DNA of 64,000 nucleotides from Candidatus Campbellbacteria bacterium RIFOXYC2_FULL_35_25. GTDB taxonomy: Bacteria; Patescibacteriota; Minisyncoccia; Phycocordibacterales; UBA12079. The translations under genes and the position numbers were made by a program. Every line of letters begins with the position of its first letter. Within the stretch, counting starts at the first letter, position 1. Shown in pieces: positions 2,930 through 18,408 of the stretch. The notes beneath the pieces are model-generated. The model was not told the origin of the DNA and did no database searches. It saw only the letters and a program-made list of their open reading frames with translations. The stretch is taken from assembly GCA_001774495.1 (NCBI GenBank), contig MFAE01000014.1, forward strand, positions 10,573-74,572, written 5' to 3'.

Positions 2930-3227
2930 GTAGGTTCTATGGAAAGTAAGTTTATTTCCTCGTCCTTATTATGAGAGGAAGTTTTGAAAAAAGATTTCTT
3001 TTGAGAGACTGCACTCTCCTGAATAATTTGCTAAAGTGAGATTTCTCCTTTAAAAAATTTTTACGTTCTTGGCGGGTGAAAGGAAATACTTTTCTTTTTG
3101 TAGGCATAGAACCTCCTCGTAAGTTGAAAGGACCATTATTTTTCTAAATAAACAATAGCAAAGGTATGTTTAGTTTACAAGTTTTTAGGTAGCAAAAGCG
3201 CTAGAATTTTTATCCTTTTTGTATTAT

Positions 3228-3331
3228 AATTGCGAGCGAGGATAAATAAGAATAAATCTAAATTTATTCTTATTATATCCGAGCGAAGGAATTATATGCT
3301 TCGCATATAATTGCGAGCGAGGATAAATAAG
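3228..3331 (+). repeat. Two direct copies of the 25-nt motif ATAATTGCGAGCGAGGATAAATAAG, separated by small hairpins, just upstream of tRNA-Cys
   Basis: Exact 25-mer at 3228-3252 and 3307-3331; related TATAATTGCGAGC at 20744-20756; the CGAGCGAG/CTCGCT motif also occurs near the rplU start. Confidence 0.6.
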
Positions 3332-3347
3332 GGGGAATCGGATAAAA

Positions 3348-3419
3348 GGCGTAGTGGCGAAGTGGTAACGCTGTGGTTTGCAAAACCACCATGCGCCGGT
3401 TCGATTCCGGCCTACGCCT
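3348..3419 (+). tRNA. tRNA-Cys (GCA)
   Basis: Acceptor GGCGTAG/CTACGCC, anticodon loop TTGCAAA, T-arm GCCGGTTCGATTCCGGC, discriminator T. Confidence 0.85.
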
Positions 3420-3436
3420 CAGTTGTTCTTTAAATT

Positions 3437-3518
3437 GCCTAGGTGGCGGAATTGGTATACGCGCACGACTTAAAATCGTGTCTCTCACGGGATGCGGGTT
3501 CGACTCCCGCCCTAGGCA
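3437..3518 (+). tRNA. tRNA-Leu (TAA)
   Basis: Acceptor GCCTAGG/CCTAGGC, anticodon loop CTTAAAA, long variable arm, T-arm GCGGGTTCGACTCCCGC. Confidence 0.85.
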
Positions 3519-3900
3519 CATTAGAAATACTAAATATAATTTATTAAAAATTATATTTAGTATTTCTAATTCGTAAGTTGAGGGAGTCGAACAGAACTTT
3601 TTAAAAGCAAATTTCTTTGCTTTTAAAAAGTCCGAGGCTTCGGAGGAAAAAATTTTGATGTCGTTTCACGACCAAAAATTTTTGGAGGAGAAGGACTCCC
3701 GCCCTAGGCACATTAGAAACATTGAATATATTTTTTGTGGGGTATATTCAATGTTTCTAATCCGTAGGTTGCGGGAGTCGAACAGAACTTTTTAAAAGCA
3801 AATTTTTTTGCTTTTAAAAAGTCCGAGGCTTCGGAGGAAAAAGTTTTCTTTATCGCTTTGCGATTGAAAACTTTTGAGGGAGAAGGACTCCCGCCCTAGG
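3519..3900 (+). repeat. Two tandem ~190-nt structured units (3519-3710 and 3711-3900). Each ends with a direct copy of the tRNA-Leu 3' end (GGACTCCCGCCCTAGG, followed by CA in the first unit).
   Basis: Each unit has a ~50-nt perfect palindrome (cattagaaatactaaatataatttattaaaaattatatttagtatttctaat), then tcgtaag, then gagggagtcgaacagaac (the reverse complement of the Leu T-arm), then small hairpins, then the tRNA 3' copy. Confidence 0.7.
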
Positions 3901-3914
3901 AAAATTAGAAATAT

Positions 3915-3987
3915 CCGTTCGTAGCTCAGTTGGTAGAGCAACCGGCTCTTAACCGGTAGGTCGAAGGTTCGAACCCTTCCGAGCGGA
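3915..3987 (+). tRNA. tRNA-Lys (CTT)
   Basis: Acceptor CCGTTCG/CGAGCGG with one G-U pair, anticodon loop CTCTTAA, T-arm GAAGGTTCGAACCCTTC. Confidence 0.85.
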
Positions 3988-4181
3988 CAAGTGAGCCCTT
4001 TTTGGGCGAGCGCGGAAGTTCGGAGAAAAGCAAACAATTTTGCTTTTCGTAAGGGTTCGAACGACGGAACATGTCGAGCAGAGCGAGACAGTGAGTCGCG
4101 TCCAGTAGTACTTAAATTTTTACGAGCGAAGCGAAGTAAAAAGTTTAGTAACTATGGGACGAACCCTTCCGAGCGGACAAG
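3988..4181 (+). repeat. ~190-nt tRNA-linked element ending with a direct copy of the tRNA-Lys 3' end (GGGACGAACCCTTCCGAGCGGACAAG at 4156-4181)
   Basis: Contains ttcgtaagGGTTCGAACgacggaacatg (reverse complement of the Lys T-arm) and a core related to the Trp- and Ala-linked elements. Confidence 0.65.
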
Positions 4182-4566
4182 CGAGTCTTTATTAGATGAG
4201 CATAAAAAAAGTACAAAAACATTTATAAATTAAAAAATAATAAGTATGTCACAAGATCAATTGATAAAACTAGCATGCCAGGATTGTAAAAGGATTAATT
4301 ACTGGAGCAGGAAAAACAAAAAACTTGTCACCAAAAAGATAGAACTTAAAAAGTTTTGTAAGTGGTGTAAGAAGCAGACTAATCACAAAGAAGTTAAGAA
4401 ATAAACTTAAATTTAGCGCAGGGCTTTGTCGGTTTCAGAAAAATTTGTTTCACCGTATTTGTAATACGTTTCAAAAAATTTTTCCTTACCTCCTCGCCCT
4501 GCATCTAAATTAAAATTTATTTAACGATTTTGTAATTTGGTGATTGAAATTTGTTATTTTAAACAC

Positions 4567-4638
4567 TGGGTCTATAGTTTCAATGGTAAAACATCGGTTT
4601 CCAAAACCGCAGTTCGAGGTTCGAGTCCTCGTGGACCC
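4567..4638 (+). tRNA. tRNA-Trp (CCA)
   Basis: Acceptor GGGTCTA/TGGACCC, anticodon loop TTCCAAA, T-arm CGAGGTTCGAGTCCTCG, discriminator G. Confidence 0.8.
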
Positions 4639-4682
4639 GCAAAATAAAAGCCCCCTAAGGGGGCTTTTATTTTGCGGGTCCA
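4630..4682 (+). terminator. Perfect 25-bp inverted repeat with a 3-nt loop that incorporates the tRNA-Trp 3' acceptor strand; probable intrinsic terminator
   Basis: gtggacccgcaaaataaaagccccc taa gggggcttttattttgcgggtccac. Confidence 0.6.
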
Positions 4683-4692
4683 CAGCAAAGTG

Positions 4693-4870
4693 CCTGCGCA
4701 CTTTGCGTGAGGACTCGAACGGCGGAGACATGTTTTGCAAAGCAAAACAGTCGAGCCGCGTCCAGCGATACTTTGTAAATTTTGAGGTACGAAAAAATTT
4801 ACTTAGTAATCGCGGGACGAGTCCTCGTGAAAGTGCCTGCGCACTTTGCGTGAGGGCTCGAACGGCGGAG
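4693..4870 (+). repeat. tRNA-Trp-linked element. It ends with a direct copy of the T-loop/T-stem (GGGACGAGTCCTCGTG, 4814-4829) and is followed by a second partial copy of its 5' part (4830-4870).
   Basis: aaagtgcctgcgcacttt hairpin, then gcgtgaGGACTCGAACggcggagacatgttttgcaaagcaaaacagtcgagccgcgtccag; the hairpin plus gagggctcgaacggcggag is repeated at 4830-4870. Confidence 0.65.
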
Positions 4871-4940
4871 CAGTTTTGTGAATATAAAAAAGAGGTGTGC
4901 CCATCACGAGCACACCTCCTTGTTCTTAAACCCAGAGCCA

Positions 4941-5504
4941 TTAGTTTGGCCATGCTTCAATCAAAGCTTCGAGAATTCTTGCCATTTCCATACTGCCACC
5001 ACATTGCCCAGTGACGATTGCTTCGTCGACAAACCCATGTTTTTTGAGGTTCTGTAGACTCGGAAATTTATCCTTAAGGCCACAATCGCAAGTTAGCGTC
5101 GCGATGTAAGCATCCGGGAAGTCATCCCTTAAGGACTCGGTAAAATGAGTGGCTTCAGAAAAGCCAGACAGCCCGAGGTAAATCATGAAAAATAGGTTCT
5201 CGTGCAGGACAACTTCTGGATGTTCCCCGAGCAAACATTGTTCTACGTTTTGCTGGCAAATACTGGCCCTCATCTCCATTTGTGAAGGAGATGACCATTC
5301 CGAAACTCGTTCTCTGTGTCCATTTTCCGTTTCGCTCGCCGAGTAAACACTCAAACCTTGTTTCCCCGTGTCCACTTGGCCCCTATAACCCTGAATGCTG
5401 TTATAGGAGGTGAAGACGGCCGATAATTGACTTTTGCCTTTAATAATTTCTGGTATCTTCGCAATAAAATCTTCGGGTTTGATTAGCATCTCGGATTCCT
5501 CCAC
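4941..5504 (-). CDS. Hypothetical protein with visibly higher GC than its neighbours
   Basis: 187-aa ORF containing CDCG and GQCGGS motifs; a hairpin terminator at 4893-4920 lies downstream on the minus strand; no family recognised. Confidence 0.45.
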   Translation of the reverse strand: MEESEMLIKPEDFIAKIPEIIKGKSQLSAVFTSYNSIQGYRGQVDTGKQGLSVYSASETENGHRERVSEWSSPSQMEMRASICQQNVEQCLLGEHPEVVLHENLFFMIYLGLSGFSEATHFTESLRDDFPDAYIATLTCDCGLKDKFPSLQNLKKHGFVDEAIVTGQCGGSMEMARILEALIEAWPN

Positions 5505-5606
5505 AGAGAAGATTAATATAAAAGACTACCTACTCGAAATCTACGGTAAAAGGTACCAGGAAAAAATATTTTTGTCAACAAAAAACCCCTTACGGGGTTC
5601 CTCAAA

Positions 5607-5936
5607 CTAAGACCGGCTTTCCTTAGATATTTCATCAATCCTTTGCCTATTTTTTTCTCCTTTATCTATTTCAAAATCAAAAAAGGGAACTGATTTCATC
5701 TTTAATTTACTCTTTGCAAAACTCTTGAAGTCTTTCCTTTTTCTCTTTACGAAATTTAGCGCCGATTCTTCTCCAGCAGTTGGATAAACTGTTATAAAAA
5801 TTGTAGCACGTTTTAAGTCTTTTGAAACATCCGCGCTTGTAACCGTAATCAAAGAAGTATAGTTAGATTCGTTCTGCAAAAACTGTGCCGCCAAGCTCTT
5901 TAATAATTCTGTTACTTTTTCTTGTCTTTGGGTCAT
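5607..5936 (-). CDS. rbfA: Ribosome-binding factor A
   Basis: 109 aa starting MTQRQEKVTELLKSLAAQFL, a typical RbfA N-terminus; sits upstream of infB in the usual operon order. Confidence 0.8.
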   Translation of the reverse strand: MTQRQEKVTELLKSLAAQFLQNESNYTSLITVTSADVSKDLKRATIFITVYPTAGEESALNFVKRKRKDFKSFAKSKLKMKSVPFFDFEIDKGEKNRQRIDEISKESRS

Positions 5937-6026
5937 AAATTAGTTTTTAGTCTATAGTTTTTAGTTTTTAGATTTGGGAATTAAATTAAATATTAATAAT
6001 TTGTATTCTTATTAGAAATTTATTTT

Positions 6027-7562
6027 CTATTCTTCAACTACGATAAATGCTTCTAGTATATCTCCTGGGGCAATTTCTTTTTTTGATTCAACTACCGAGC
6101 CAAATTCTTCTCCTTCTCTAACTTCTTTGGTTTCGATTTTTTGAGACTGTAAACCAAGAACCTTTCCTTCTCCTATTTCATGCTCTCTTCTTGATATTTT
6201 AACTTTTGCACCGACAGAGATGGTTCCTTCTAATATTTTTCCTCCAATCACTTGCTTGTCTTTTGTTTGGCTAAAAATTCTTATTATTTTCGCCTTACCT
6301 ATAACTTTATTTGTCTTTACCTTGGGAGTTTTTTCTTTTATTTTTTCTTCTAACCACTCAGTCAATTTATATATTATATTGAAAGTATTTGTTTGAATTT
6401 TCATTTTCTCTGAAGAATCCTTGGCCTCTCTGTCTATTTTTACATTGAATCCAACTACGATAGTATTTGGGTCTCCTCCCGCTGTTTGGATATCATTTTC
6501 TGTTACATTTCCGACTCCCGCTTTAATTATTTTTACTGTAACTCGTTCATTTTTGATTTTCTCTATTTCGTGTTGAATTGCCTCTAGGGTTCCGAGAACA
6601 TCCACTTTTATGATTATTGGGATTATGGCTTTTTCTCCAGTAAAATCTGTTTCAGTGGCTCCCTGTTCTTTTGTCCCTTTGTTTTCTTTTATTTCTTTAC
6701 TTGCTATATATTCAAGTGCTTTTTTTTCAGCATCTTTTTTGGAACTGAAAGAATAAAAAGGGGAACCCACGGTGGGGATCTCCTTAAACCCTGTGACTTT
6801 TATTGGGCTCGAGAAAGAAGCTTCTTTTATTGGTTCGCCCAAGAAATTATTCATTGTCCTGACTGGTGCATATTTATCTTCGCAAACAATGAAAGAACCT
6901 GTTTTTAATGTTCCATCTTTAACCACCAAAGTAACACAAACTCCTTTTTTGGAATCGTGGTTGGCTTCAAGAACAATCCCTTCAGCTAATTTACTCTCAT
7001 CACTCCTTAATTCTTCCATTTCTGCCATTAAAAGGACGTTATCAAGCAATTCAGACACTCCTTCTCCTGTCTTGGCTGATATCGGGTTGTAGGGGATATC
7101 CCCACCATAACCTTCCAAATATATTTCATTTTCAATTAAGTTCTGTTTTACTTTCTCAACATTGGCTCCGGGTCTGTCTATTTTATTAATAGCCACAATA
7201 AAAGGAATCCCGGCTTCTTTTATGGACTTCAGAGCCTCTAGTGTTTGTGGCTTTGGTCCTTCTTCGGCTGATATGATAAGAATAGCAATATCAGCTATAT
7301 TTGCCCCTCTTAGACGCATAGCAGTAAAGGCCGCGTGTCCTGGGGTGTCGAGAAAAGTTATTTTTTTATTTTTTCCATCCTTGGTTTTATGGACAACTTC
7401 ATAGGCTGAAATATGCTGGGTAATTCCTCCCGCTTCTCCCTCAACAATATTTGATTTTCTTATGTAGTCTAGGAGGGCAGATTTTCCATGGTCAATATGC
7501 CCCATAATAGCAATTACAGGCGGTCTCTCAACAGTATTGTTTTTTTCTGCATTTTTATCCAT
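6027..7562 (-). CDS. infB: Translation initiation factor IF-2, short form (511 aa)
   Basis: G-domain motifs GHIDHGKS, DTPGH and NKID. Confidence 0.9.
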   Translation of the reverse strand: MDKNAEKNNTVERPPVIAIMGHIDHGKSALLDYIRKSNIVEGEAGGITQHISAYEVVHKTKDGKNKKITFLDTPGHAAFTAMRLRGANIADIAILIISAEEGPKPQTLEALKSIKEAGIPFIVAINKIDRPGANVEKVKQNLIENEIYLEGYGGDIPYNPISAKTGEGVSELLDNVLLMAEMEELRSDESKLAEGIVLEANHDSKKGVCVTLVVKDGTLKTGSFIVCEDKYAPVRTMNNFLGEPIKEASFSSPIKVTGFKEIPTVGSPFYSFSSKKDAEKKALEYIASKEIKENKGTKEQGATETDFTGEKAIIPIIIKVDVLGTLEAIQHEIEKIKNERVTVKIIKAGVGNVTENDIQTAGGDPNTIVVGFNVKIDREAKDSSEKMKIQTNTFNIIYKLTEWLEEKIKEKTPKVKTNKVIGKAKIIRIFSQTKDKQVIGGKILEGTISVGAKVKISRREHEIGEGKVLGLQSQKIETKEVREGEEFGSVVESKKEIAPGDILEAFIVVEE

Positions 7563-7601
7563 ATTATTTTTTTTGAAATGTGAAGCCTCTTCATAAAAGT
7601 A

Positions 7602-8069
7602 TTACTTACCTTTATTCAATTTCACCTTTTGCAAAACCTCTTTTTCTTCTCCTGACAACTCATGTTCACAAAGCCAATTCTTTATTGGTTTCGCAAAAAC
7701 ACTGACCTTTTCTCTAGAATAAAGACTTGATATAACAACTCCGTTTCCATTGTTGTCGATCATGGCTGTAGCAAAGCTTTGATTTCCGCCGATGCCATCT
7801 CCTTTGAAAGGATTAAATCTTACTGTTTCAATTCCTTGAATAGATTTGTCTATTTCTACATCTATACTTTGAATTTTATTATTTGTGGCATTCTTAAATT
7901 CATTTAGAATATTTGTATTTTTTTGAAGAGCTCCAATTTGGTCATTCAAATTCTGATTATTTTTTACAGAAGGAATGTTCTTAATTTTTACTTCAAGTCG
8001 AATAATCCACAAAATCAGTAAAAAACTGATAGCAATTAGGGAATAAATCATTATTTCTTCTGTTGACAT
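7602..8069 (-). CDS. Hypothetical membrane-anchored protein, possibly DUF4446-like
   Basis: N-terminal TM helix, coiled-coil, RFNPF..GNQSF..GNGVVISSLY segment. Confidence 0.45.
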   Translation of the reverse strand: MSTEEIMIYSLIAISFLLILWIIRLEVKIKNIPSVKNNQNLNDQIGALQKNTNILNEFKNATNNKIQSIDVEIDKSIQGIETVRFNPFKGDGIGGNQSFATAMIDNNGNGVVISSLYSREKVSVFAKPIKNWLCEHELSGEEKEVLQKVKLNKGK

Positions 8070-8145
8070 AACTATAAAAATTAACTTATATACTTAAAGA
8101 TTATACATTTTTAATGCTTTTTTGCAATTTTATGTAATTTATAAT

Positions 8146-8910
8146 TTATATTACTTCGATTGTGTAATTATAATTTGCGAAATGTTTTTCAACCATTTTT
8201 CTGAAATTCGGAGAATCTTGGGAAATTATAAATTTTAGTTCACCATCTCCAACATTATTATTAAACTTTGAGAGAGCGGTTTCGGCTACAACAGAAGCTG
8301 GGTCAAAGATTTCAACTTTTCTCCCAATTTTTTTAAAAGATTGCTCAAATTTATCTAGGAAGAAAGGATAGTGAGTACAACATAAAATAACCTTATCAAA
8401 ATTATCTTGGGAGACCCCTGTTGTTGCCTCATCGATTATTCTTTCAATTTCATTTTCATCTGCTCCAAATTCAATTGCTCCAGCTAACTCGGCAATCGGA
8501 AATGTTTTTATTTCTACGTTATGTTTTCTAAAATTTTCTTGGTATGCCCCTGACTCTATTGTGGCTGGTGTAGCAAAGATCAAGATTTCCCCAGAATGAT
8601 TTTTAAATTCTGATACGGTTGGGTTTATCATCTCAACTATTCCAAACGGAACATCCGACAAGAGTCCAATTTCTTCAAGAACCATAAAAGCGGAAACACT
8701 ATTGCAAGCGCTTAAAATATTTGTTGCCCCATTTTCAAGAAGTTTTTTTACTCCAAGAGCGGTTAATATTTTTAAATCGTCTTGCGTTTTTATTCCATAA
8801 GGAGCATTTTTTATATCACCAAAATAAACCACATCTGTTTGCGGAGATTTTTCTTTGAGAGCTTTTAAAACAGTAAGCCCTCCGATTCCTGAATCAAAAA
8901 TACCAATCAT
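8146..8910 (-). CDS. murI: Glutamate racemase
   Basis: IGIFDSGIGGLTV N-terminus and CTHYP motif. Confidence 0.85.
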   Translation of the reverse strand: MIGIFDSGIGGLTVLKALKEKSPQTDVVYFGDIKNAPYGIKTQDDLKILTALGVKKLLENGATNILSACNSVSAFMVLEEIGLLSDVPFGIVEMINPTVSEFKNHSGEILIFATPATIESGAYQENFRKHNVEIKTFPIAELAGAIEFGADENEIERIIDEATTGVSQDNFDKVILCCTHYPFFLDKFEQSFKKIGRKVEIFDPASVVAETALSKFNNNVGDGELKFIISQDSPNFRKMVEKHFANYNYTIEVI

Positions 8911-8982
8911 GAGGATAATTATACTCTGAGAGTCAAAAAGTTAAAAGTTTAAGAGCTCTTTTTATGAAAAGAGAGGTTGAGG

Positions 8983-9537
8983 TTATTCTTGCGCTAAAAT
9001 AAGAATAATGTCATCAGAATTATATAAATTAAGACCTATTCCATCTGGACCGTATGATCCAAGAGCAACGGCGTTTTCTCCTGCTACAGTATAGTCCGTG
9101 TCGAGAAAATAAGGATGTCCCCATGGGTCAATTATATTTGCATTGATATAAGGTCCCCGCCATCCTGAGTAAGGAGTGATAGGGTCGTTAGCTGTTAGAC
9201 CAGCCGATGCAACTGTAATATCTTCTACCTCATTACTTCCACAGGCACCACAAACACTGTAGGGAGTCTGGTGCCCTGGCCATTCTCCAGTATCCATTTC
9301 CATTACTTCCATTGCTGTGCGTATATTACCAAGTTCAGCTATTGCTTTGGCAGTACGGGCTTTTGCTCGGGCACCATTTAAGGAAGCCATGACCACAGAG
9401 GATAAAATACCAATAATTGCGATAACCACTAGGAGTTCGATTAAAGTGAAACCAAAGTTATTTGATAGTTGATAGTTTTTAGTTTTTAGTAATAAAAATT
9501 TGCTACGTAAATTTTTATCTTTTTTATTCTTTAACAT
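8983..9537 (-). CDS. Type IV pilin / pseudopilin with a prepilin-type N-terminal cleavage-methylation domain
   Basis: G-FTLIELLVVIAIIGIL with G-1, F+1 and E+5; a long basic leader partly encoded by an AT-rich micro-repeat. Confidence 0.75.
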   Translation of the reverse strand: MLKNKKDKNLRSKFLLLKTKNYQLSNNFGFTLIELLVVIAIIGILSSVVMASLNGARAKARTAKAIAELGNIRTAMEVMEMDTGEWPGHQTPYSVCGACGSNEVEDITVASAGLTANDPITPYSGWRGPYINANIIDPWGHPYFLDTDYTVAGENAVALGSYGPDGIGLNLYNSDDIILILAQE

Positions 9538-9687
9538 TTTTTTATTATATCAATTTTTTTGTTTTTTGTTTTCAACAGAATAGAGGATTGTTCCTAATTC
9601 TTTATTTTTTGATTCGCGTATAGTTTTATGCGATAATGAATCTAATTATAACTCATTATGTTTAAAATAAGAAAAACAAGAATATTT

Positions 9688-10839
9688 ATGGACTATGCTA
9701 CATCTACTCCTATCAGAAAGGAGGTTTTGAAAGCGATGCAACCTTACTGGATCGAAAAATACGGTAATCCCGGAACCATTCATCAATTTGGGGTAGAAGC
9801 AAAAAAGGCACTGGATGATTCTCGAAAAAAAATATCTCAGATTTTGAAATGCCATTCTGATGAAATAATTTTTACTGCGAGCGGAACAGAATCAAATAGC
9901 ATGGCTATTTTCGGTGTAATAGAAAAATTAGCAGAAAAAGGGGCTGATTTAAATAAATTACACATGATAACAACTGTTATGGAGCACCCATCTATTTTGG
10001 AGTGGTTTGCTCGATATGAAAAAAAAGGAGTGAGAGTGAATTACATTGGAATAGACGAAGAGGGAATCATTGATTTAAAAGAATTGCGGAAAGTTCTTTG
10101 TCCAGAAACATTTTTTGTGTCTGTTATGTATGTAAATAATGAAATCGGAACAATTCAGCCTATTACAAAAATAGCCCATATAATAAAAGACCATAATAAA
10201 AAATTTACAGGCGTGAAGCGGTTACCAACTATTTTTCATACTGATGCGAGCCAAGCCCCTTTGTATCTACCTTTGGATATTCACAGCTTGGGGGTGGATA
10301 TGCTTACTATTGATGGACAAAAAATTTATGGGCCAAAAGGAGTGGGAGTTTTATTTAAGAAAAGGGAAGTAGAAATAAGTCCGTTGGTTGTAGGAGGGAG
10401 CCAAGAAGGAGGTTTGAGAGCGGGAACAGAAAATATTCCTCTTATTGTTGGGTTGGCAAAAGCATTAGAATTAGCTAATGAAGACAGGGAGAAAGAATCT
10501 GCCCGTCTTACAAAAATAAGAAATGGTTTTATAGATAGGGTTCTGAAAGAGATTTCTGGCTCCGTGTTAAACGGTAGTAGAGAAAAAAGATTACCCAACA
10601 GTGTTAACGTTTCAATCCCCAATATTGATACAGAATTTACCATTATAAAATTAGACAGTAAAGGAATCGCTTGTTCCTCAAAAAGTGCCTGTATGGGAAA
10701 ATCAAAAAAAGATTCTTACGTTGTAGAGGCTTTGGGAAATAATATGGGTAATTCTTTAAGATTTACTCTCGGGAGAAGCACCTCCAAAAAAGATGTAGAT
10801 TATGTGGTTGATATGATAAAGCGAAGTATTGGCAAATGA
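9688..10839 (+). CDS. Cysteine desulfurase (class V aminotransferase, IscS/NifS-like)
   Basis: MDYATSTP start, HTDASQA, TIDGQKIYGPKG PLP-lysine region; tool start at 9658 is probably upstream of the true start. Confidence 0.8.
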   Translation: MDYATSTPIRKEVLKAMQPYWIEKYGNPGTIHQFGVEAKKALDDSRKKISQILKCHSDEIIFTASGTESNSMAIFGVIEKLAEKGADLNKLHMITTVMEHPSILEWFARYEKKGVRVNYIGIDEEGIIDLKELRKVLCPETFFVSVMYVNNEIGTIQPITKIAHIIKDHNKKFTGVKRLPTIFHTDASQAPLYLPLDIHSLGVDMLTIDGQKIYGPKGVGVLFKKREVEISPLVVGGSQEGGLRAGTENIPLIVGLAKALELANEDREKESARLTKIRNGFIDRVLKEISGSVLNGSREKRLPNSVNVSIPNIDTEFTIIKLDSKGIACSSKSACMGKSKKDSYVVEALGNNMGNSLRFTLGRSTSKKDVDYVVDMIKRSIGK

Positions 10840-10846
10840 ATTTCAC

Positions 10847-11920
10847 ATGAAAAATTATCTTATAAACAAAAAAGAGAGATTGAAGGGACACTTCTCTACT
10901 TCAAAAAATTGGGTGGAAAAAAATGACAAATATTTATCACCCGCTTTTTTTATTGCTGGTTTTATCTTAGATAATTTGACTCTGACAAGGATTGATATGT
11001 TTTTTGATAATGCTATTCTTTTTGGTTATTTATCCTTAGTTGCTTTCAGCATAATTATGATGAGAGCAGTTAAGCGAGAGGGAATCGTTAAATATTTACC
11101 ATTTGTTTTGCAGTTTGCTTTTGGAGGTTTGTTCAGCGGTTATGTGATTTTTTATACAAAAAGCGCTTCTTTGGCATCAAGTTGGATTTTTCTCTTTCTT
11201 TTGTATGGGTTATTTTTAGGGAACGAAAGACTTAGGCATTATTATAAAAAATCAGATTTTCAGATAATAATTTTCTTTGTCGCAATTTTCTCTTTTATGA
11301 TTTTCTTTATTCCAGTTTTATTGAAGGAAATGGGCTGGCAAATCTTTATTCTTAGTGGACTCGTAAGTTTATTAGTTATTTATCTGTTCATTTTTTTCAC
11401 TTTAAAATTTTCTGAGGTTAGAGGAAAAAGAGACTTTAGAAATATATTGGTTGTTTACATTATTTTTAATATTCTTTATTTTACAAATATCATTCCTCCG
11501 GTACCATTATCTTTAAAAAACCTAGAACTTTATCATTCTGTTGAGAAAAGTTTTTCTGGAAATTATATCGTGCAAAAGGAAGTAGGGGCTTGGAGTTTGT
11601 TTAATAAATTCACAAAAACACAAAATAGTTCTATTTATGTTTATAGCTCTGTTTTTGCTCCCACTGATTTAAACATCGATGTTGTTAATGTTTGGCGAAA
11701 ATATGATGAGAAAAAAGGCGAGTGGGTGACGAGAGAAAGAATAACGTATTCAATAAAAGGGGGGAGGTCCGAAGGATACCGAGGTTACTCTTTCATTTCA
11801 AATGTTGAGACCGGAAAATGGAAGGTTAGTATCGAGACAGAAAGGGGGCAAACTTTGGGAGTAATAAAATTTAAAGTAATAGAAGGAAAACCAGAACTGG
11901 AAACAGAGGAAATAAGATAA
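10847..11920 (+). CDS. Hypothetical polytopic membrane protein
   Basis: Multiple hydrophobic segments; start ambiguous (TTG at 10829 or ATG at 10847). Confidence 0.45.
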   Translation: MKNYLINKKERLKGHFSTSKNWVEKNDKYLSPAFFIAGFILDNLTLTRIDMFFDNAILFGYLSLVAFSIIMMRAVKREGIVKYLPFVLQFAFGGLFSGYVIFYTKSASLASSWIFLFLLYGLFLGNERLRHYYKKSDFQIIIFFVAIFSFMIFFIPVLLKEMGWQIFILSGLVSLLVIYLFIFFTLKFSEVRGKRDFRNILVVYIIFNILYFTNIIPPVPLSLKNLELYHSVEKSFSGNYIVQKEVGAWSLFNKFTKTQNSSIYVYSSVFAPTDLNIDVVNVWRKYDEKKGEWVTRERITYSIKGGRSEGYRGYSFISNVETGKWKVSIETERGQTLGVIKFKVIEGKPELETEEIR

Positions 11921-12028
11921 AGAATAAAGAGTTAACTTAGGTGGTGTGGTTGACATCTGGCATAGTTTTGTTATCCTATCCTAGGAAATGTTACCATTTT
12001 TTTTAAATTTTAGAGTTGGAGGAGCAGA

Positions 12029-12448
12029 ATGATGAAGAGAGTGTGGAGTATTTGTTTGCTTATTGGGTTGATGTTGTGGTGTTCTACATCCACGGCTTCA
12101 ACCCTGACCCCCGCAGTTTCAGGTCTTTCATTTCACCAGGGTGAAACAGGAGACTTTGAATGGGAAATTTTAAAAAAAGGAGGGAAGGAACACAAGAGCG
12201 AATCAGTTCGCTTTGAGGACAAAAAAAATGAACGGGAGGGGTCTTTTTGGATGACGGGGGGGCATTATGGCGTCGACGATTTTAAAAAAGAAAAAATTCG
12301 TTTTGATAAAAAAGGAAAAGGTCATCACTACGGACGGGGAAAGAATCCCCCTCGTTGTGAAGTCCCTGCACCCTCGAGTATTCTTTTGCTCACCGCCGGC
12401 TTGGTTGGTCTAGCCAGTTTTGGGGCAATCTTAAAAAAGAAGGCGTAA
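12029..12448 (+). CDS. Small secreted protein with a PEP-CTERM-like C-terminal sorting signal (VPAPSS variant), in a GC-rich patch
   Basis: N-terminal signal peptide; C-terminus VPAPSSILLLTAGLVGLASFGAILKKKA. Confidence 0.5.
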   Translation: MMKRVWSICLLIGLMLWCSTSTASTLTPAVSGLSFHQGETGDFEWEILKKGGKEHKSESVRFEDKKNEREGSFWMTGGHYGVDDFKKEKIRFDKKGKGHHYGRGKNPPRCEVPAPSSILLLTAGLVGLASFGAILKKKA

Positions 12449-12633
12449 TTTTTTATGCACGCCTTCGCGCAATAACCTTGTCGTCTCTTTGTGAGATGAC
12501 GAGGTTATTTTTTTATTTGAAATCTATTGACAGACAGGCAATAAGAGTGTAAGTTTATAGAGAAATTTTGCAGTTCTTCGAAGTTTAGAGGGGGGCGTTT
12601 TGCCTAAAATTAAGAACACAAGGAGAGAACAGA

Positions 12634-13307
12634 TGCAACAAACGAAGAGGGTAAGTATGGCCGATTTTCTTGCCGGGATGGTTGGTAACGACGAATCGTT
12701 CATTTTTGGGGTACCCCGTGAGACGATGGCAAGGGAAAGCCCTAAAGATCGTCTTCTGCGAAAAGCAGTGACCGACGGAGAGGCTGCCAAACCGATTGAC
12801 CTCCTTTCTGTCCATGCGGAAACCGTTTCGGCCCTTGCCGCGGCCGACTATTTCCAGGAGCTCTTGGATCTGTCACTCGCGACGAGTGAAGATCTTCGAA
12901 ACAAACTCGAGGTGATGACTCATATCAAGAATGTTCAGGAGAAAAGGGCGAACTCTTTATTCAAAAGGCTGAAGGGGCTCTCTGAGGAAGAGCCTCTCAA
13001 GCAGGCGGTAGTCACGCGGATGAAGAGCCGGATAGCATCTCTGGAGGAGATCACAAACGCCCTTGCCGAGGAAAACGAGCTTCTTATGGAAGCTCTCGAC
13101 ACAATCTCTGCACTCATTGCCTCTCCTCCCAAGTGTTCCCCTCCGGCGAAGAAGGATCGGGTACCTTTAATCAAGCGGATTAAGGAAATCTCGGATGCCT
13201 TTGGTAGTTCCTTCATTCCGTTGGATCAGGCTCCTAAGCCAGGCTGGGTGGAACCGGAAAAAGATTGGCCTCGGTTGCCCATCGACAAACCGAAGTCCGA
13301 GTGTTAG
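12634..13307 (+). CDS. Hypothetical protein, GC-rich with atypical codon usage
   Basis: SD aaggagag 6 nt before the ATG at 12634; GC-rich stem-loop terminator at 13340-13385. Confidence 0.45.
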
Positions 13308-13513
13308 GGGAAATCCGGCTATAGCCGTTTTCCCAAGAGTTTCACGCCGCGCGCCCTTCACAGGGTTGCGCGGTGTTTTTTATTTAAAATCATCTTTTAT
13401 AAACTCACCCTTTTATTTTATCTGTTGATTTATAAAATTATTTATAATACAATAGTTCTTGCCTATATTTTGGGTTAGTTTCATTTTGAAATTAGTTGAT
13501 TTGTTTACGTTTT

Positions 13514-13587
13514 GGGCCAGTAGCTCAGTTGGCTAGAGCGCCTCATTTGCACTGAGGAGGTCGGGGGTTCGATTCCTCTCTGGTCCA
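13514..13587 (+). tRNA. tRNA-Ala (TGC)
   Basis: Acceptor GGGCCAG/CTGGTCC with the G3:U70 identity pair, anticodon loop TTTGCAC, T-loop TTCGATT. Confidence 0.85.
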
Positions 13588-13593
13588 CACAAC

Positions 13594-13632
13594 CAAAATA
13601 AAACACCATTTTTTTAGATGGTGTTTTATTTT
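13594..13632 (+). terminator. Palindromic rho-independent terminator after tRNA-Ala
   Basis: aaaataaaacaccat ttttttag atggtgttttatttt. Confidence 0.7.
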
Positions 13633-13639
13633 GTGTTGC

Positions 13640-13850
13640 TGTGCCAGAAGAAAGCAAACTGCTTTGCTTTCGTGAGGAATCGAAAGGCGGAATCATGTTT
13701 TGCGAAGCAAAACAGACGAGCCGGGGTCGCGAGCACTTAATAGATTTCGAGCCGAAGACGAAGAAATATATTTAGTGACTCGTGACCGATTCCTCTCTGG
13801 TCCATATTTTTACTTAGAACTGGGGACCGATTCCTCTCTGGTCCACCAAA
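13640..13850 (+). repeat. tRNA-Ala-linked element with two direct copies of the tRNA-Ala 3' end (GACCGATTCCTCTCTGGTCCA at 13784-13804 and 13825-13845)
   Basis: ctttcgtgaGGAATCGAAaggcggaatcatgttttgcgaagcaaaacagacgagccggggtcgcgagcactt; the core is homologous to the Trp-linked element. Confidence 0.65.
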
Positions 13851-14399
13851 ATCTAGACCCAAAAGCGACAGCTTTCGGGCCTAGATTTTGGTGGAATATT
13901 CTAGACTTTGCGCGAAATTATTTTGAGAACGAATGAAGCTTACGCTCCGATTTCTTCTAAACTTTAAACCGCCTGCTACGCCCCACTAAAGCGGAAGTTT
14001 CGGCGAAACGACTTGTCGCCTCCGTAAACTCTGGCGACAACCAACACCAAAAAAATTCTTTTCCTTTTCTCTCTAGGGTCTGTTCAAGATTTCACCGCAA
14101 ACATATATTATTTACTACTCTAAAGAGTAGAGTTTGCTTGTCGGCTAAAACTTCATAATTTTGGCTACAAATTTTTAAAATTTCGTCAGTATATCTTGAT
14201 ATACTTCTTCAATTTTTAAAATTTTCGCACAAAATTCTGAAGTTTTATCTCGACATGAAATCTTGAACAAACTCTTGAAATTTGGGGGGGGCGAAAAAAG
14301 AAAGGAAAAAACGCAAAGAAATTTTTTTGGGTTGGTTTCGAACTTATAGGCAGTATCTTAATACTTTAAGATGCTGCCCGCTTCTAGCCATTTTTTGTT

Positions 14400-14705: not shown

Positions 14706-15776
14706 ATGAGTAAAGAAAAAACAAGTTCAAATAGTAACCTACATAAAGCTAATAGGGCAAAAAAAGACGAGTTTTATACTCAGCTTATTGATATTGAAAA
14801 GGAGTTAAAACACTACAAAGAACAATTTCGTGACAAGGTAGTATATTGTAACTGCGATGACCCCTTTGAAAGTAATTTTTTCAAATATTTTGCCTCAAAC
14901 TTTAATGTTCTGGGCTTAAAAAAACTCATTGCCACCAGTTACAAACCATCCCCAATTGCTAATACTCAATTAGGATTATTTGGTGATGACAAAAAACTCT
15001 CAAAATCAAAAGGTCGCCCAAAAACAACAGCTAATAAATTTATCATCAACGAAGCTAGTGATTTTGATGGTGATGGTGCATTTGACCTTCATGATATAGC
15101 AGAACAACTAAAGGCTAATAAAAATAATGAGTGGGCTCCTCTTAAAGGTGATGGGGATTTTAAAAGCCCAGAAAGTATAGAACTTTTAAAACAAGCAGAT
15201 ATTGTCGTAACTAATCCACCTTTTTCATTATTTAGGGAATATGTTGCTCAATTAGTTGAGTATGATAAAAAATTTTTAATATTAGGTCAGCAGGGAGCGG
15301 TGATCTATAAAGAATTTATTCCTCTAATCAAAGAAAATAAAGTTTGGCTCGGACATGATAATGGTGGAACAAAATGGTTTCAAGTTCCTATGGATTATGA
15401 CATCCCAACAGAATCAAGAAAAAAAAATGTTGACGGTGTAAAATATTTCAGCATGGGAAGTGTTAATTGGTATACAAATCTCGAAGTTGCTCGTCGCCAC
15501 AATGATCTTGTATTATATAAAAAATATAATCCTAAGGAATATTTTAAATATGATAATTATGATGGAATTAACGTAAATAGATATATCGATATCCCAATGG
15601 ATTATGAAGGAGTAATGGGTGTACCAATTACTTTTCTTAACTACCATAACCCTGATCAGTTTGAGATTATAGGATTAGATAGGTACACGGGAAAGAATGG
15701 AGATAAAGATTTTACTATTAACGGGAAAATGTTGTTTCGTCGTATATTAATTAAAAATAAAAGACCACAAAAATAA
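14706..15776 (+). CDS. N6-adenine (amino-class) DNA methyltransferase
   Basis: DEFYTQ (motif X-like), VYCNCDDPFESNFF (motif I-like), IVVTNPPFS (motif IV, NPPF). Confidence 0.65.
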   Translation: MSKEKTSSNSNLHKANRAKKDEFYTQLIDIEKELKHYKEQFRDKVVYCNCDDPFESNFFKYFASNFNVLGLKKLIATSYKPSPIANTQLGLFGDDKKLSKSKGRPKTTANKFIINEASDFDGDGAFDLHDIAEQLKANKNNEWAPLKGDGDFKSPESIELLKQADIVVTNPPFSLFREYVAQLVEYDKKFLILGQQGAVIYKEFIPLIKENKVWLGHDNGGTKWFQVPMDYDIPTESRKKNVDGVKYFSMGSVNWYTNLEVARRHNDLVLYKKYNPKEYFKYDNYDGINVNRYIDIPMDYEGVMGVPITFLNYHNPDQFEIIGLDRYTGKNGDKDFTINGKMLFRRILIKNKRPQK

Positions 15777-15780
15777 TGAT

Positions 15781-16884
15781 ATGATAATAAATTTACATAA
15801 GATTAAAATCTCTGAGATTGTAAAGGATTATAAGGACAGCGATGAAGAAGGGGTGTCTGCTTTTGGTGGTAAATTAGATATTCGTCCTAAGTATCAAAGA
15901 GAGTTTGTATATAGTGGTAAACAAAGAGATGAAGTGATCAGAACTGTCAAAAATGGTTTTCCTTTAAATGTTATGTATTGGGTGAAAAAAGAAGACAAAA
16001 ATTTTGAAGTACTTGATGGACAACAAAGGACAATTAGTATCGCCCAATTTGTAAATGGAGATTTTTCAATTGAATTTAACGGAAGAATCGCAATGTTTCA
16101 TAATCTAACTAAAGAAGAACAAGAGCAGATTATGAATTATGATCTTATGATTTATCACTGTGAAGGAACCGATAAGGAAAAGCTCGACTGGTTTAAGATT
16201 ATTAATATTGCTGGTGAGAAATTGTTTCCTCAAGAGCTACGAAATGCTGTGTATACTGGCCCATGGCTTTCAGATGCAAAGCTGAAGTTTAGTAAATCAA
16301 ATTGTGCGTCTTATTTGTTAGCAAATGACGGTGGTCAATTAATAACAGGTTCTCCTATAAGACAAGAGTATCTAGAAACTGCATTATCATGGATAAACAA
16401 TGATGAAATAGAACAATATATGGCACAACATCAACATGACAAAGATGCAGATGAGTTGTGGCAGTATTTTCAAAATGTAATCCATTGGGTACGGAAAACT
16501 TTTCCTCATTATAGAAAAGAGATGTCAGGCGTAAATTGGGGCGAACTCTATAACGCATTTAAAAACAAAAAACTTAATCCAGAAAAATTAGAGAAAGAAA
16601 TTAAAAGATTGATGCAAGATGAAGACGTCACAAAAAAATCTGGGATCTATTCATATATATTAACTCTCAAGGAGCGATACCTTTCTATACGGGCATTCAC
16701 ACCAAATATGAAACGTGAAGCATATGAAAGACAAAATGGTGTTTGCCCTGAATGTAATAAAGATTTTTCACTTTCAGAAATGGAAACGGATCATATTGAT
16801 CCGTGGCATGAAGGTGGAAGAACAATAGCAGAAAATTGCCAGATGTTATGCAAAGAATGTAATAGACGAAAATCTGGAAAATAA
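15781..16884 (+). CDS. DUF262 (ParB-like, DGQQR) plus C-terminal HNH nuclease fusion; GmrSD-like restriction-type nuclease
   Basis: LDGQQRT motif; C-terminus CPECN..HIDPWHEGGRT..NCQMLCKECNRRK. Confidence 0.65.
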   Translation: MIINLHKIKISEIVKDYKDSDEEGVSAFGGKLDIRPKYQREFVYSGKQRDEVIRTVKNGFPLNVMYWVKKEDKNFEVLDGQQRTISIAQFVNGDFSIEFNGRIAMFHNLTKEEQEQIMNYDLMIYHCEGTDKEKLDWFKIINIAGEKLFPQELRNAVYTGPWLSDAKLKFSKSNCASYLLANDGGQLITGSPIRQEYLETALSWINNDEIEQYMAQHQHDKDADELWQYFQNVIHWVRKTFPHYRKEMSGVNWGELYNAFKNKKLNPEKLEKEIKRLMQDEDVTKKSGIYSYILTLKERYLSIRAFTPNMKREAYERQNGVCPECNKDFSLSEMETDHIDPWHEGGRTIAENCQMLCKECNRRKSGK

Positions 16885-16888
16885 AATT

Positions 16889-17998
16889 ATGAAAAAAATC
16901 GAAGTAAAAATCACAGAAAAAGATAAGGGTACAAAAGACCTGTCCTTGCTTAACCTACGCGATGAAGTTGTTAATTTTCTATATAAAGATACCGTTGCTA
17001 ATTCAACAAAAACAGACATGCAATTCTTCGTTTTGCTTTTCTTTGCGTCTATTCAAGTTGAACAAAAGACCTTTTTGGAAAAAATTTTAGAAGACGGTGT
17101 GCCGAAATTCAAAAAGCTAAATGCAGTATTTTCAAACAGAAAAGGATATTTACATGCAGGAGAGTATAAAAAGATGGTTGACGAACATGGGCTTACTGAG
17201 TTGTTTAAAAACGATATTTTCTTTGTAATTATTGAAGCCGTTTTAAATATTGACGAAATAAAAAGTCGTTTCTCTGAGCTTTTTGAAAAACATAAAAAAT
17301 TAGGAGATTCCATAATTTCAATCGGAGAAAAATATTCAAGAGATTTAGAAGAAAGTTTCAAAGATTTCCAGACCTCAAGAATTCAGGACGATAGATACGA
17401 TGAGCACGGAAATTATCATGATTTAAGCAAAAGCGTATATAGGACTGTTAGGATGCGAAATTCTAGGAACCTTGATTTAAATCTTCAGCGATATACCTCA
17501 ATAAAGAAGATTACCAGTGAATCGCCAGTTGATTTAACCTTTCTTCAACATATTGATCCACAAATCATTTTTGATTTGTGGGATAAGTATCAAGTTGCTG
17601 AATACATGAAGTCAATGTGGAGTACAGCAAATAATAGCCCGATAATCGCTAATACAGTTGGGGGTATTTTTGGTGGATTGGTTGTGCTGTATGCTCAATG
17701 GAAACTTATCGACGGAAGAAAAAATAGAACAGAAAAAAAGAAAGCGAAGCAAAAATTCGAAAAATCAAAAACAGAGAACGGACATATTCTTGATGATCTT
17801 ACACTTAGGCTTGTTGATTCTGTGTTAAAGGCAAACGAAAGATTAGAAAAAGAGGTTGAGGTAAATAGAACAAAAGTTCGAGAACTTTCGAGTGAAAATC
17901 TCCTGATTCAAGATAAAGATAAAATAAAAAAGCTTGAAGAGCGAATTGCTCAACTTGAAAACTTATCTGTACAAGCAAAAGTTATTGACTATAAGTAG
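16889..17998 (+). CDS. Hypothetical protein with a C-terminal coiled coil
   Basis: 369-aa ORF tightly packed after the nuclease gene. Confidence 0.4.
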   Translation: MKKIEVKITEKDKGTKDLSLLNLRDEVVNFLYKDTVANSTKTDMQFFVLLFFASIQVEQKTFLEKILEDGVPKFKKLNAVFSNRKGYLHAGEYKKMVDEHGLTELFKNDIFFVIIEAVLNIDEIKSRFSELFEKHKKLGDSIISIGEKYSRDLEESFKDFQTSRIQDDRYDEHGNYHDLSKSVYRTVRMRNSRNLDLNLQRYTSIKKITSESPVDLTFLQHIDPQIIFDLWDKYQVAEYMKSMWSTANNSPIIANTVGGIFGGLVVLYAQWKLIDGRKNRTEKKKAKQKFEKSKTENGHILDDLTLRLVDSVLKANERLEKEVEVNRTKVRELSSENLLIQDKDKIKKLEERIAQLENLSVQAKVIDYK

Positions 17999-18081
17999 AT
18001 GATAGGGAGCCACGCTTGCGCGCTTATGAGCAGGTGAGGCAATCACAATATGATTTGTTTATGGTGTGTTAAAATAAACTT

Positions 18082-18372
18082 ATGAATTTTATACTTTTAA
18101 TAATAGTTGCAATAGCAGGAATAATTATCGGAAGTTATTTTGGTGTGAAAAAAGATGGTTTGATTTTTGGGCAAACGAAGAAAAAGAAAGAAAACAAGGA
18201 AAGAATATTGAAATTTTTGGAAACTAATGAAAAAGTGACAAATAATGATATTGAGAAATTATTAGGAGTATCTGATGCAACTGCAACAAGGTATCTAAAT
18301 GAATTAGAAAAAGAGCAAAAAATCAAACAAATCGGCACGGTCGGTCATGCCGTATATTATCGCTTAATGTAG
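18082..18372 (+). CDS. Small membrane-anchored protein with a C-terminal winged-HTH tail
   Basis: N-terminal TM helix; C-terminus ATATRYLNELEKEQKIKQIGTVGHAVYYRL. Confidence 0.45.
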   Translation: MNFILLIIVAIAGIIIGSYFGVKKDGLIFGQTKKKKENKERILKFLETNEKVTNNDIEKLLGVSDATATRYLNELEKEQKIKQIGTVGHAVYYRLM

Positions 18373-18408
18373 CCACGAAGTGGCTGAACGGCTCAACGAG
18401 TTGAGCCG

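Follow-up and report, generated by a model that had tools for sequence, protein, structure and literature searches.

Small non-coding units at tRNA 3' ends of Patescibacteria: a candidate family of miniature integrative elements

The window analysed here is a 64,000-nucleotide stretch of Candidatus Campbellbacteria bacterium RIFOXYC2_FULL_35_25 (contig MFAE01000014.1, positions 10,573 to 74,572). It contains five tRNA genes, all on the + strand (ARAGORN and Rfam), and four of them (Leu, Lys, Trp and Ala) are followed by units of about 150-220 bp without any coding capacity, which carry inverted copies of the 3' part of the adjacent tRNA and are flanked by direct ones. We favour, at a probability of about 0.5, the reading that these units are miniature, non-coding and non-autonomous integrative elements located in the 3' parts of tRNA and transfer-messenger RNA (tmRNA) genes of Patescibacteria, also named Candidate Phyla Radiation (CPR). 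An original prediction, made from the letters of the window alone, had described this layout 3' of the same four tRNAs, and sequence reading and a repeat finder confirm it. Its span of 3519-13850 as one feature does not hold, since about 8.5 kb of unrelated genes (5000-13500) lie inside.

Architecture, fold and distribution of the family

Type-A units, present at the Lys, Trp and Ala tRNAs, show the order X, H, X'a, P0, X'b, AAA, P2 and P3, followed by the next copy of X. X is the tRNA segment from C56 of the T-loop to the 3' end, and H is a hairpin, which in many units has the form of a textbook terminator with a U-tract and in some that of a GA-clamped mini-hairpin. X'a is complementary to the 3' strand of the acceptor stem, and frequently to the trailer too; P0 is a conserved hairpin whose tip is often AAACTGCTTT; and X'b is complementary to the T-stem 3' strand and the T-loop, with the 3' terminus TCGAA(A/C). 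P2 shows a 3-bp GRC/GYC stem with perfect covariation, a GGA/GA internal loop, a covarying GNC/GN'C stem, a CAUG/CAG loop and a variable tip, and P3 is a long hairpin with GGTC/GACC-type closing pairs and a conserved ACTTA...TTAGT motif. P2 and P3 make up the conserved core. As the comparison with relatives shows, X' is a bipartite inverted copy of the whole X, split by P0 exactly at the boundary between acceptor stem and T-stem. The hairpins formed by X, H and X'a are often perfect across 22-29 bp. The reverse-complement arm of the original prediction corresponds to X'b, and was right for the T-loop and T-stem part; it was not complete, as X'a, located 5' of P0, had been overlooked. A covariance model of type A, named R1, was built on an alignment of 15 sequences. 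The features of the window are the following, where loci in other genomes and metagenomes are cited by L numbers.

3348-3420, + strand: tRNA-Cys (ARAGORN, Rfam)
3437-3519, + strand: tRNA-Leu(TAA), whose repeated segment X, from G57 to the end, is 3502-3518
3502-3693, + strand: type-B (Leu-type) unit 1, with X 3502-3518, perfect 23-bp hairpin H 3520-3570, contiguous X' 3571-3592, hairpin 3596-3631, small hairpin 3632-3643 and long hairpin at about 3645-3690
3694-3885, + strand: type-B unit 2, 84-92% identical to unit 1, with a different H that is again perfect
3886-3914, + strand: distal Leu X copy and native-type spacer (..ATTAGAAATAT) abutting tRNA-Lys (compare the empty site in L103)
3915-3988, + strand: tRNA-Lys(CTT) (ARAGORN, Rfam)
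3970-4159, + strand: type-A unit at Lys (R1 match 4015-4173, 129 bits, E 1e-34), with X 3970-3988, H 3989-4011, imperfect X'a 4012-4024, P0 4025-4048, X'b 4049-4062, P2 4063-4097 and P3 4099-4159
4160-4201, + strand: distal Lys X copy and decayed trailer copy (repeat family D6, 83% identity); site empty in L100, L101 and L102
4568-4640, + strand: tRNA-Trp(CCA) (ARAGORN, Rfam)
4622-4817, + strand: type-A unit at Trp (R1 match 4675-4831, 139 bits; inverted repeat I2), with X 4622-4640, perfect 26-bp terminator-like hairpin 4631-4683 including X'a 4675-4683, P0 4685-4706, X'b 4709-4720, P2 4721-4757 and P3 4759-4817
4818-4829, + strand: distal Trp X copy, truncated past CGTG (repeat family D4)
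4830-4873, + strand: second type-A copy at Trp, broken off within P2; the strain variants L024 and L087 differ at exactly 4818-4873
13514-13588, + strand: tRNA-Ala(TGC), functional copy without encoded CCA
13570-13786, + strand: type-A unit at Ala (R1 match 13640-13800, 160 bits, E 2e-43; fold z-score -8.9), with X 13570-13587, terminator-like hairpin H 13588-13643, X'a 13644-13648, P0 13650-13671, X'b 13674-13685, P2 13686-13722 and P3 13725-13787
13787-13804, + strand: Ala X copy 2 (repeat finder, sequence reading)
13805-13827, + strand: Ala stub of 23 nucleotides, the P3 end of an older element
13828-13848, + strand: Ala X copy 3, with CCA encoded and its own terminator hairpin at 13842-13895

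The tRNAs of the window score 59-72 bits, and X copies flank every unit. At the Lys, Trp and Ala tRNAs the direct copy begins at C56, and at the Leu tRNA it begins at G57; the two Leu units are in tandem with a period of 192 nucleotides (repeat finder). Ala X copy 3 and its terminator (13828-13895) are probably the displaced ancestral 3' end of tRNA-Ala. The core string CATGTTTTGCRAAGCAAAACAG, ascribed by the original prediction to the Lys, Trp and Ala units, is common to Trp and Ala (two matches at no more than three mismatches, 0 expected) and has no exact copy at Lys, where the core is a diverged homologue, matched by R1 at 129 bits.

The P2 core was scanned as a degenerate pattern against one genome per species and was found in 19 places. 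Twelve belong to Patescibacteria (Saccharibacteria, Nomura-, Vogel-, Pace- and Campbellbacteria), and in all 12 the core is near the 3' end of a tRNA or near a 3' fragment of one. The other seven places are GC-rich, coding, without tRNAs and unmatched by R1, and were rejected as chance. R1 recovers every training locus and further copies, and the metagenome scan shows 73 additional loci with 108 R1 matches. R1 gives 21 + 108 matches, and the family counts 128 in 86 CPR genome or metagenome loci, with E values down to 1e-43; with zero matches in the seven non-CPR loci, they bear out the link with CPR genomes, where the original prediction had proposed to search. A same-strand tRNA is less than 120 nucleotides upstream in 79 of the 128 matches, and 14 more are second tandem copies. 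The tRNAs belong to 16 types: Ala, Arg, Asp, Cys, Glu, Gly, His, Ile, Leu, Lys, Met, Phe, Pro, Ser, Trp and Tyr. Apparent orphans are located at contig ends, adjacent to tmRNA (L033, L034, L041 and L097) or at tRNAs split by group I introns (L047 and L050). These introns, at 3159-3361 of L047 and 14408-14686 of L050, lie within tRNA genes which bear a 3' type-A element.

The Rfam 15 scan of 3300-5000 and 13400-14100 at E <=10 shows only tRNAs and chance-level hairpins (miRNA-type models), and in the window scan IS605-orfB-I appears only at chance level (E 0.59). The viral contigs show 0 matches to either pattern (P2 core, or P0 plus core), and the phage and plasmid collections show none by blastn in distant mode. 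The literature searched contains no description of the family; the sole related work deals with group I introns in CPR tRNAs.

Fold statistics were obtained from the 15-sequence alignment, with shuffles and slid alignments as controls. In the structure 95.4% of the cells pair, against 31-43% in the slid controls; two-sided changes are found in 26 of the 37 pairs, and the covariation score is 0.588, compared with 0.20 in the shuffles. The minimum-energy fold pairs tRNA nucleotides 54-70 with X'. G-U outnumbers A-C by 87 to 33 overall and by 52 to 14 outside P1, with G-U being only about 2% of the pairs. The tips of H, P2 and P3 repeatedly show a GA-clamped mini-hairpin motif, GA[GA]C-N2-3-G[CT]GA. 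Its density is 2.9 per kb in the tRNA-sense strand, whereas the background shows 0.13 and the reverse complement 0.16 per kb, which is a 23-fold enrichment in one strand only. GCGAAGC, a classically stable DNA mini-hairpin, occurs 35 times and GCTTCGC three times. Because G-U exceeds A-C and the GA-clamped motif is one-stranded, the tRNA-sense strand is the selected folding strand; since the GC skew of the + strand is positive throughout the window, this strand is the lagging-strand template there. No conserved promoter is found 5' of the core, and in many loci a strong terminator (H) separates the tRNA from it.

The arms co-vary with the adjacent tRNA, as the original prediction had claimed from the window. 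The seven X'b nucleotides facing nucleotides 59-65 of their own tRNA are all paired in 20 of 52 elements, and at least six are paired in 42 of 52, while the rate of complete pairing with other tRNAs is 1.6%. For X'a, complete pairing (7/7) with the own tRNA is found in 34 of 52 elements, compared with 5.9% for other tRNAs. X'b fits the proximal X, that of the upstream tRNA, better in 18 cases and the distal X better in five, with 31 ties, and distal X copies gather indels. The predicted closing stem, in which the arms would mimic the T-arm by pairing with the downstream copy in particular, is not supported.

The cores show another pattern. Identity in conserved columns is about 65% between elements at different tRNAs of one locus, about 61% between elements at the same tRNA in different loci and about 59% between unrelated ones; because copies within a locus are only about 65% identical, no recent burst is apparent. 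When exact duplicates are excluded, the closest pairs are mostly at different tRNAs. The pair L031 (Pro) and L034 (Ser) has a P2-P3 block of 125 nucleotides in common, which is 100% identical; X'a, H and X differ, and so do the P0 hairpins, with compensatory changes. L080 (Ala) and L045 (Gly) have P0 in common and P2-P3 about 88% identical, with unrelated H hairpins and X'b arms that differ at tRNA-specific T-stem positions.

Insertion sites and turnover of the arrays

The repeat starts at nucleotide 56 of the tRNA in 34 of 42 cases, at nucleotide 55 in two and at nucleotide 57 in six, and it mostly ends between -3 and +4 nucleotides relative to the tRNA end. In the Leu and Lys units of the window, at the tRNA-Leu of L104 and in L094 the repeat extends 10-20 nucleotides into the locus-specific trailer.

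Relatives with 85-92% identity in the L33 protein keep the cluster Cys-Leu-Lys-rpmG-Trp, and its sites are occupied in some genomes and empty in others. The Leu site, occupied in the window, is empty in L103, with a spacer of 26 nucleotides to tRNA-Lys, and the Lys site, also occupied in the window, has no unit in L100, L101 and L102. The Trp site carries R1-type units in the window, L100, L101 and L103; in L104 it is empty, with the native terminator directly after the tRNA and no X'a. Because the distal X of L100 has a terminator resembling this native one of L104, the proximal X and H appear to be element-borne; the distal Ala X of the window, which bears CCA and has its own terminator, points to the same. 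In L100 the segment from tRNA-Cys to tRNA-Trp, with rpmG, is inverted with respect to L101, relative to the RNR/L21 and RbfA/IF-2 flanks; both loci encode an identical L33, and the NTP_transf_6 gene is missing from L101.

Array content varies between strains, a variation for which the original prediction had proposed to test. L087 is 98-99% identical to the window, yet contains an extra 54-nucleotide stub plus X. L024 is 100% identical through position 4873, after which its second Trp copy goes on. There, at 658-1338 (the variant of the window from 4874 onward), L024 shows an enlarged P2, P3 and then an open reading frame (ORF) for a HepT/DUF86-like toxin with an RNAIVHRY motif; the contig ends at this cargo. 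A rearrangement hotspot is one possible explanation of the L024 copy, and a cargo-carrying relative is another.

Arrays are also mixed. In Campbellbacteria CP011215 (L013/L080), the region 3' of tRNA-Ala shows first an intact type-A unit, then a stub, a different subtype that lacks P0 and has its X' in one piece, and a stub reduced to P3, with X after each, so that the intact copy adjoins the tRNA and decayed copies of different subtypes are downstream. The tRNA-Ala with its element and stub is 91% identical between the window and L013, and the neighbouring protein 54%; from this difference, the segment seems to have been transferred and not inherited vertically.

Leu-type units, other small elements and neighbouring genes

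The Leu units, which the original prediction had joined to the others by arm architecture only, do show that architecture and do not belong to the same family. R1 does not match them, and nhmmer and blastn searches with the Leu-type unit give no match in the loci collected before L104. The tRNA-Leu of L104 carries, by eye, a type-B homologue with arms adapted to that tRNA. The skeleton common to the window and L104 is X'-TCGAAC-RGA-ACTTTT...AAAAGT-CCGNGGCTNNGG-AGGA-hairpin-X, and type B is a second family with the same logic. The L104 element (1331-2015) has a nested insert of about 300 nucleotides in its first hairpin. Since a third core type, at the tRNA-Lys of L104, shows the P3 end TTTAGAACTGGGAG, the Ala stub of the window is explained.

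Mirror-image mini-elements are present in L100 (2054-2335), L101 (2151-2335), L104 (about 1900-2000) and L003 (5300-5395, - strand), and none is found in the window. In this kind, a second copy of the first 15 nucleotides of the tRNA (to the D-loop, ..GTAGCTCAG) lies 5' of tRNA-Lys or tRNA-Asp, separated from the gene by about 90-190 non-coding nucleotides, and at least some of these inserts (L100, L101 and L104) contain GAGCGAAGCGA-type hairpins. Upstream of tRNA-Cys, the window shows a perfect 26-nucleotide direct repeat, TATAATTGCGAGCGAGGATAAATAAG, at 3225-3250 and 3306-3331; this pair flanks a short segment with CCGAGCGAAGGA and might mark one more small element. Between rpmG and tRNA-Trp, at 4414-4505, there is a long imperfect hairpin (GCAGGGC...GCCCTGC).

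The 50 ORFs of the window of at least 120 residues were scanned against Pfam, and 13 show no match. A cognate recombinase, whose search the original prediction had advised, was not found among them: no recombinase, transposase or reverse transcriptase domain is present in the 50 ORFs, and no Phage_integrase is found among them or inside the units. TnpA, TnpB, IS110 and Cas1-like genes were not seen in the ORFs of the window or in the loci examined. No protein family is common to the loci, across 12 and then 86 of them, and none of the 86 contains an autonomous parent, a longer element that shares the ends of the units and has a mobility gene. Genes for a large serine recombinase are present in only two or three loci, e.g., L079 (1724-3397) and L085 (836-2161), at more than 0.7 kb from the type-A copies but no further than a few kb; that of L079 is in a GC-rich patch, and there is no consistent link to the element.

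Other genes are adjacent to the arrays. A defence-type islet (14706-20061), about 0.8 kb 3' of the tRNA-Ala array, contains an EcoRI-type adenine methylase, a GmrSD/HNH endonuclease, a 369-residue ORF without assignment and a UvrD-like helicase. A 187-residue ORF without Pfam match (4941-5504, - strand) lies between the truncated second Trp copy and rbfA, and is absent from L100, where rbfA directly follows the Trp element. Two ORFs of 139 and 235 residues (12029-13307), also without Pfam match, are between a DUF2914 gene and tRNA-Ala; in L013 a DUF2914 homologue is directly upstream of tRNA-Ala.

Proposed mechanism, alternatives and relation to known systems

The original prediction had offered a non-autonomous element resembling a miniature inverted-repeat transposable element as one of three possibilities, and this one is favoured by the boundary at nucleotide 56, the empty orthologous sites, the strain differences and the mixed arrays. 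The unit brings a replacement 3' end of the gene (X, from nucleotide 56), usually with a terminator-like H, and the tRNA stays intact because the unit supplies this X. The tRNA-sense strand is under selection for a branched fold with X paired to X'; this rod would rebuild a duplex copy of the target, and a recombinase encoded elsewhere would recognise, in trans, the T-loop box GTTCGA and the folded core. Strand exchange would occur at or just 3' of nucleotides 55/56; the incoming X and H would become the working tRNA end, and the former end would be displaced downstream. Repeated events and X-X recombination would build and trim the arrays. We infer the steps of excision, as a circle or as a single strand, the kind of enzyme, the role of the folded strand as DNA or as RNA, and the re-matching of the arms to a new tRNA. 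The use of several tRNAs by one conserved element, seen as a problem by the original prediction, is no real obstacle, because the crossover region GTTCGA is common to nearly all tRNAs and to tmRNA, and tmRNA genes are targeted too.

These units resemble the islands and prophages that tyrosine integrases insert into tRNA and tmRNA genes, at the T-loop sublocation, in their site at the 3' part of the gene, in the direct repeat from T-loop to 3' end and in the restored gene. With such islands, cis-mobilizable elements (CIME type) and satellites they also have in common tandem accretion, with older copies downstream, and presence or absence at strain level. However, tRNA islands are kilobases long, with an integrase encoded or flanking, whereas the units are gene-free, of about 150-220 bp, contain an inverted copy of the att core and a strand-specific fold, and belong to one family that spans at least 16 tRNA types plus tmRNA. 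The attC sites of integrons are alike in being non-coding recombination sites set by the fold of one strand, with a bipartite stem, an unpaired or extra-helical spacer (here P0) and a variable terminal structure, and integron arrays are alike in having the newest unit at the primary site. The ends are of the AAC/GTT type known from attC, X'b ending in TCGAAC or TCGAAA opposite the T-loop GTTCGA, but they do not fit the R'' RYYYAAC and R' GTTRRRY consensus, as TCGAA(A/C) and GTTCGA have CGA in the place of RRR. Unlike integrons, the units show no intI, attI or cassette ORF and their target is the tRNA T-loop; their stem copies the target over 17-20 nucleotides, and P2 and P3 are invariant in sequence, whereas attC is conserved mainly in shape. 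The attP(+) of CTX-phi, an integrative mobile element exploiting Xer (IMEX), is alike in its two inverted target-like sites that fold into a target-mimicking duplex and in the use of a host recombinase in trans, but there the target is dif, the enzyme XerCD and the element a whole phage genome, against a tRNA gene and about 0.2 kb here, where a Xer/dif system is lacking. By analogy, the units may be likened to tRNA-integrating islands in location and duplication, and to attC and the CTX attP in their folded strand, and there is a real chance that their mechanism is new.

Several points weigh against the integrative reading. Classical tyrosine integrases work on an attP in duplex form, for which an inverted core is not needed. 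There is no recombinase candidate, nor any circular, excised, phage-borne or plasmid-borne copy in the collections searched. The structure-preserving divergence of the copies could reflect selection in place for a host function, and the near-identical cores at different tRNAs would, on their sequences, require either re-templating of the arms or gene conversion of the core. The empty sites could represent precise loss by X-X recombination and not unoccupied targets. The signals of which X is native are mixed: X'b of L078 matches the distal X, and the distal X of L003 and L012 differs by clustered acceptor changes.

One of the two main alternatives, each held to be unlikely, is guide-programmed insertion, in which X' would be a nucleic-acid guide, DNA or RNA, that pairs with the tRNA-sense strand of the target. 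The element proper would be H-X'a-P0-X'b-P2-P3, the flanking X would be a target-site duplication or be copied at each insertion, and the arms would be re-written, on the models of IS200/IS605 guide-target pairing, IS110 bridge RNAs or staggered integration of the casposase/Cas1 type. The pairs L031/L034 and L080/L045, the closest non-duplicate relatives and yet at different tRNAs, agree with this proposal, although core gene conversion between resident elements accounts for common cores equally well. It would also fit the repeats that pass 10-20 nucleotides beyond the tRNA end into the locus-specific trailer (Leu, Lys, the Leu of L104 and L094), the often perfect 22-29-bp hairpins of X, H and X'a, and a folding strand which is both the tRNA-sense strand and, in the window, the lagging-strand template. 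Nevertheless, the length of the repeat varies, the clustered differences between proximal and distal X (L003, L012 and L053) are unexpected from fill-in duplication, the proximal X of L100 has a terminator unlike the native one, and the mutual pairing of X and X' would mask the guide. The enzymes of the three models (TnpA, TnpB, IS110 and Cas1-like) were not seen in the sequences examined.

The model systems differ likewise. IS200/IS605 elements and their ORF-less palindrome-associated transposable elements (PATE) have in common with the units the strand-specific subterminal hairpins, an internal target-complementary sequence, the existence of miniature non-autonomous copies and the preference for the lagging-strand template, but their guides are of 4-5 nucleotides and without direct repeat, compared with 17-20 nucleotides and a direct repeat of at least 18 here. 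The bridge RNAs of IS110/IS1111 are alike in being a structured non-coding part whose loops co-vary with the target; however, they are encoded next to a DEDD/serine recombinase gene, and their target and donor loops are separate, with short, mutually non-pairing guides, whereas the units have no adjacent recombinase ORF and their two arms are mutually complementary. Casposons also insert at tRNA 3' ends and duplicate part of them, but they are of kilobase scale, with terminal inverted repeats, a fixed 14-15-bp duplication and a casposase, none of which is seen here.

It also seems improbable to us that the units are a structured RNA that serves the host, a resident RNA gene or a cis-acting trailer RNA accompanying each tRNA, which was the second possibility of the original prediction. 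The arms would mimic or mask the acceptor/T-arm helix, controlling, e.g., precursor read-through, 3' processing or decay; alternatively, they would offer a tRNA-like minihelix to RNase P, RNase Z or the CCA-adding enzyme, and duplications and stubs would be by-products of X-X recombination. The strand-specific and strongly covarying fold stands in its support: compensatory covariation together with invariant internal-loop bases (GGA/GA, CAUG/CAG) is typical of functional RNAs, G-U exceeds A-C, and the X'a-P0-X'b...X topology corresponds, by eye, to an acceptor stem and T-stem with a reduced body. A G-U share of about 2% is, however, low for an RNA family. A terminator is common after the distal X. 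The strong terminator H between tRNA and core in many loci, with no conserved promoter before the core, speaks against the RNA reading, and read-through would let X' sequester the 3' half of the tRNA (nucleotides 54-70). Within-genome copies are old, diverged and still folding, whereas distal X copies decay and close relatives lack the element at the same tRNA. The 91% identity of tRNA-Ala and its element between genomes with a 54% identical neighbouring protein could reflect such a function, but a non-functional stub is conserved with the element between these distant genomes, which points to transfer rather than selection. No Rfam match was found in the window scans.

Rather doubtful is the proposal of a programmable device, in which X'a and X'b would read the tRNA-sense strand of any tRNA or tmRNA 3' end, the arms and repeats would be re-written from the new target at each hop, and the P0/P2/P3 scaffold would recruit an enzyme or be itself catalytic.

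Very improbable is the third possibility of the original prediction, scars, taken here as inert left and right att-flanking remnants of internally deleted tRNA-integrating islands or prophages, with a core that has no role of its own. It explains only the stubs and truncated copies, and could accommodate the L024 copy, with cargo (the HepT-like ORF) in place of X, and the defence islet downstream of tRNA-Ala; it leaves the conserved core without explanation, because random deletion is not expected to leave one compact architecture, with covariation that preserves the structure, in 128 copies of many CPR classes. Neither the 86 loci nor the viral, phage and plasmid collections show an integrase-bearing parent.

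Other candidates were rejected. The hammerhead, the kink-turn and structures like that of hepatitis delta virus (HDV) do not fit in junction and bulge sizes; by eye, the junction strands (AAA, 1-3 and 0-1 nucleotides) do not fit a hammerhead core, and self-cleaving ribozymes (hammerhead, HDV-like, twister, pistol, hatchet and hairpin) have no Rfam match in the window scans. A retroviral-type primer-binding site was discarded as X'a complements the genomic trailer and not CCA, except where the gene encodes CCA, and no reverse transcriptase is present; this lack, in the scanned ORFs of the window, also discards a retron. An intron in the T-loop or a permuted tRNA is incompatible with a first tRNA copy that is already complete, and simple replication slippage is contradicted by arrays of mixed subtypes, by empty sites and by displaced ends that bear CCA or other terminators.

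If the units are truly integrative, typical kilobase tRNA-targeting islands exceed them in size by well over an order of magnitude, and a folded scaffold of 150 nucleotides with a copy of the target may suffice in cis. If instead the programmable proposal is true, they would be a tRNA-specific counterpart of the bridge-RNA and IS200/IS605 guides, of 0.2 kb and in hosts with minimal genomes. The family model R1 gives a route to searches for enzyme co-occurrence and to the mapping of transcripts and junctions. Three segments exactly matched to each tRNA, with near-identical cores at different tRNAs, raise the question of how specificity is re-written, and the answer could reveal a new mechanism of site-specific or guide-dependent recombination. 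The elements are common in Patescibacteria (four of the five tRNAs of the window, and tmRNA also), where they reshape tRNA 3' ends, terminators and CCA encoding, and they matter for tRNA annotation and for the plasticity of these reduced genomes.

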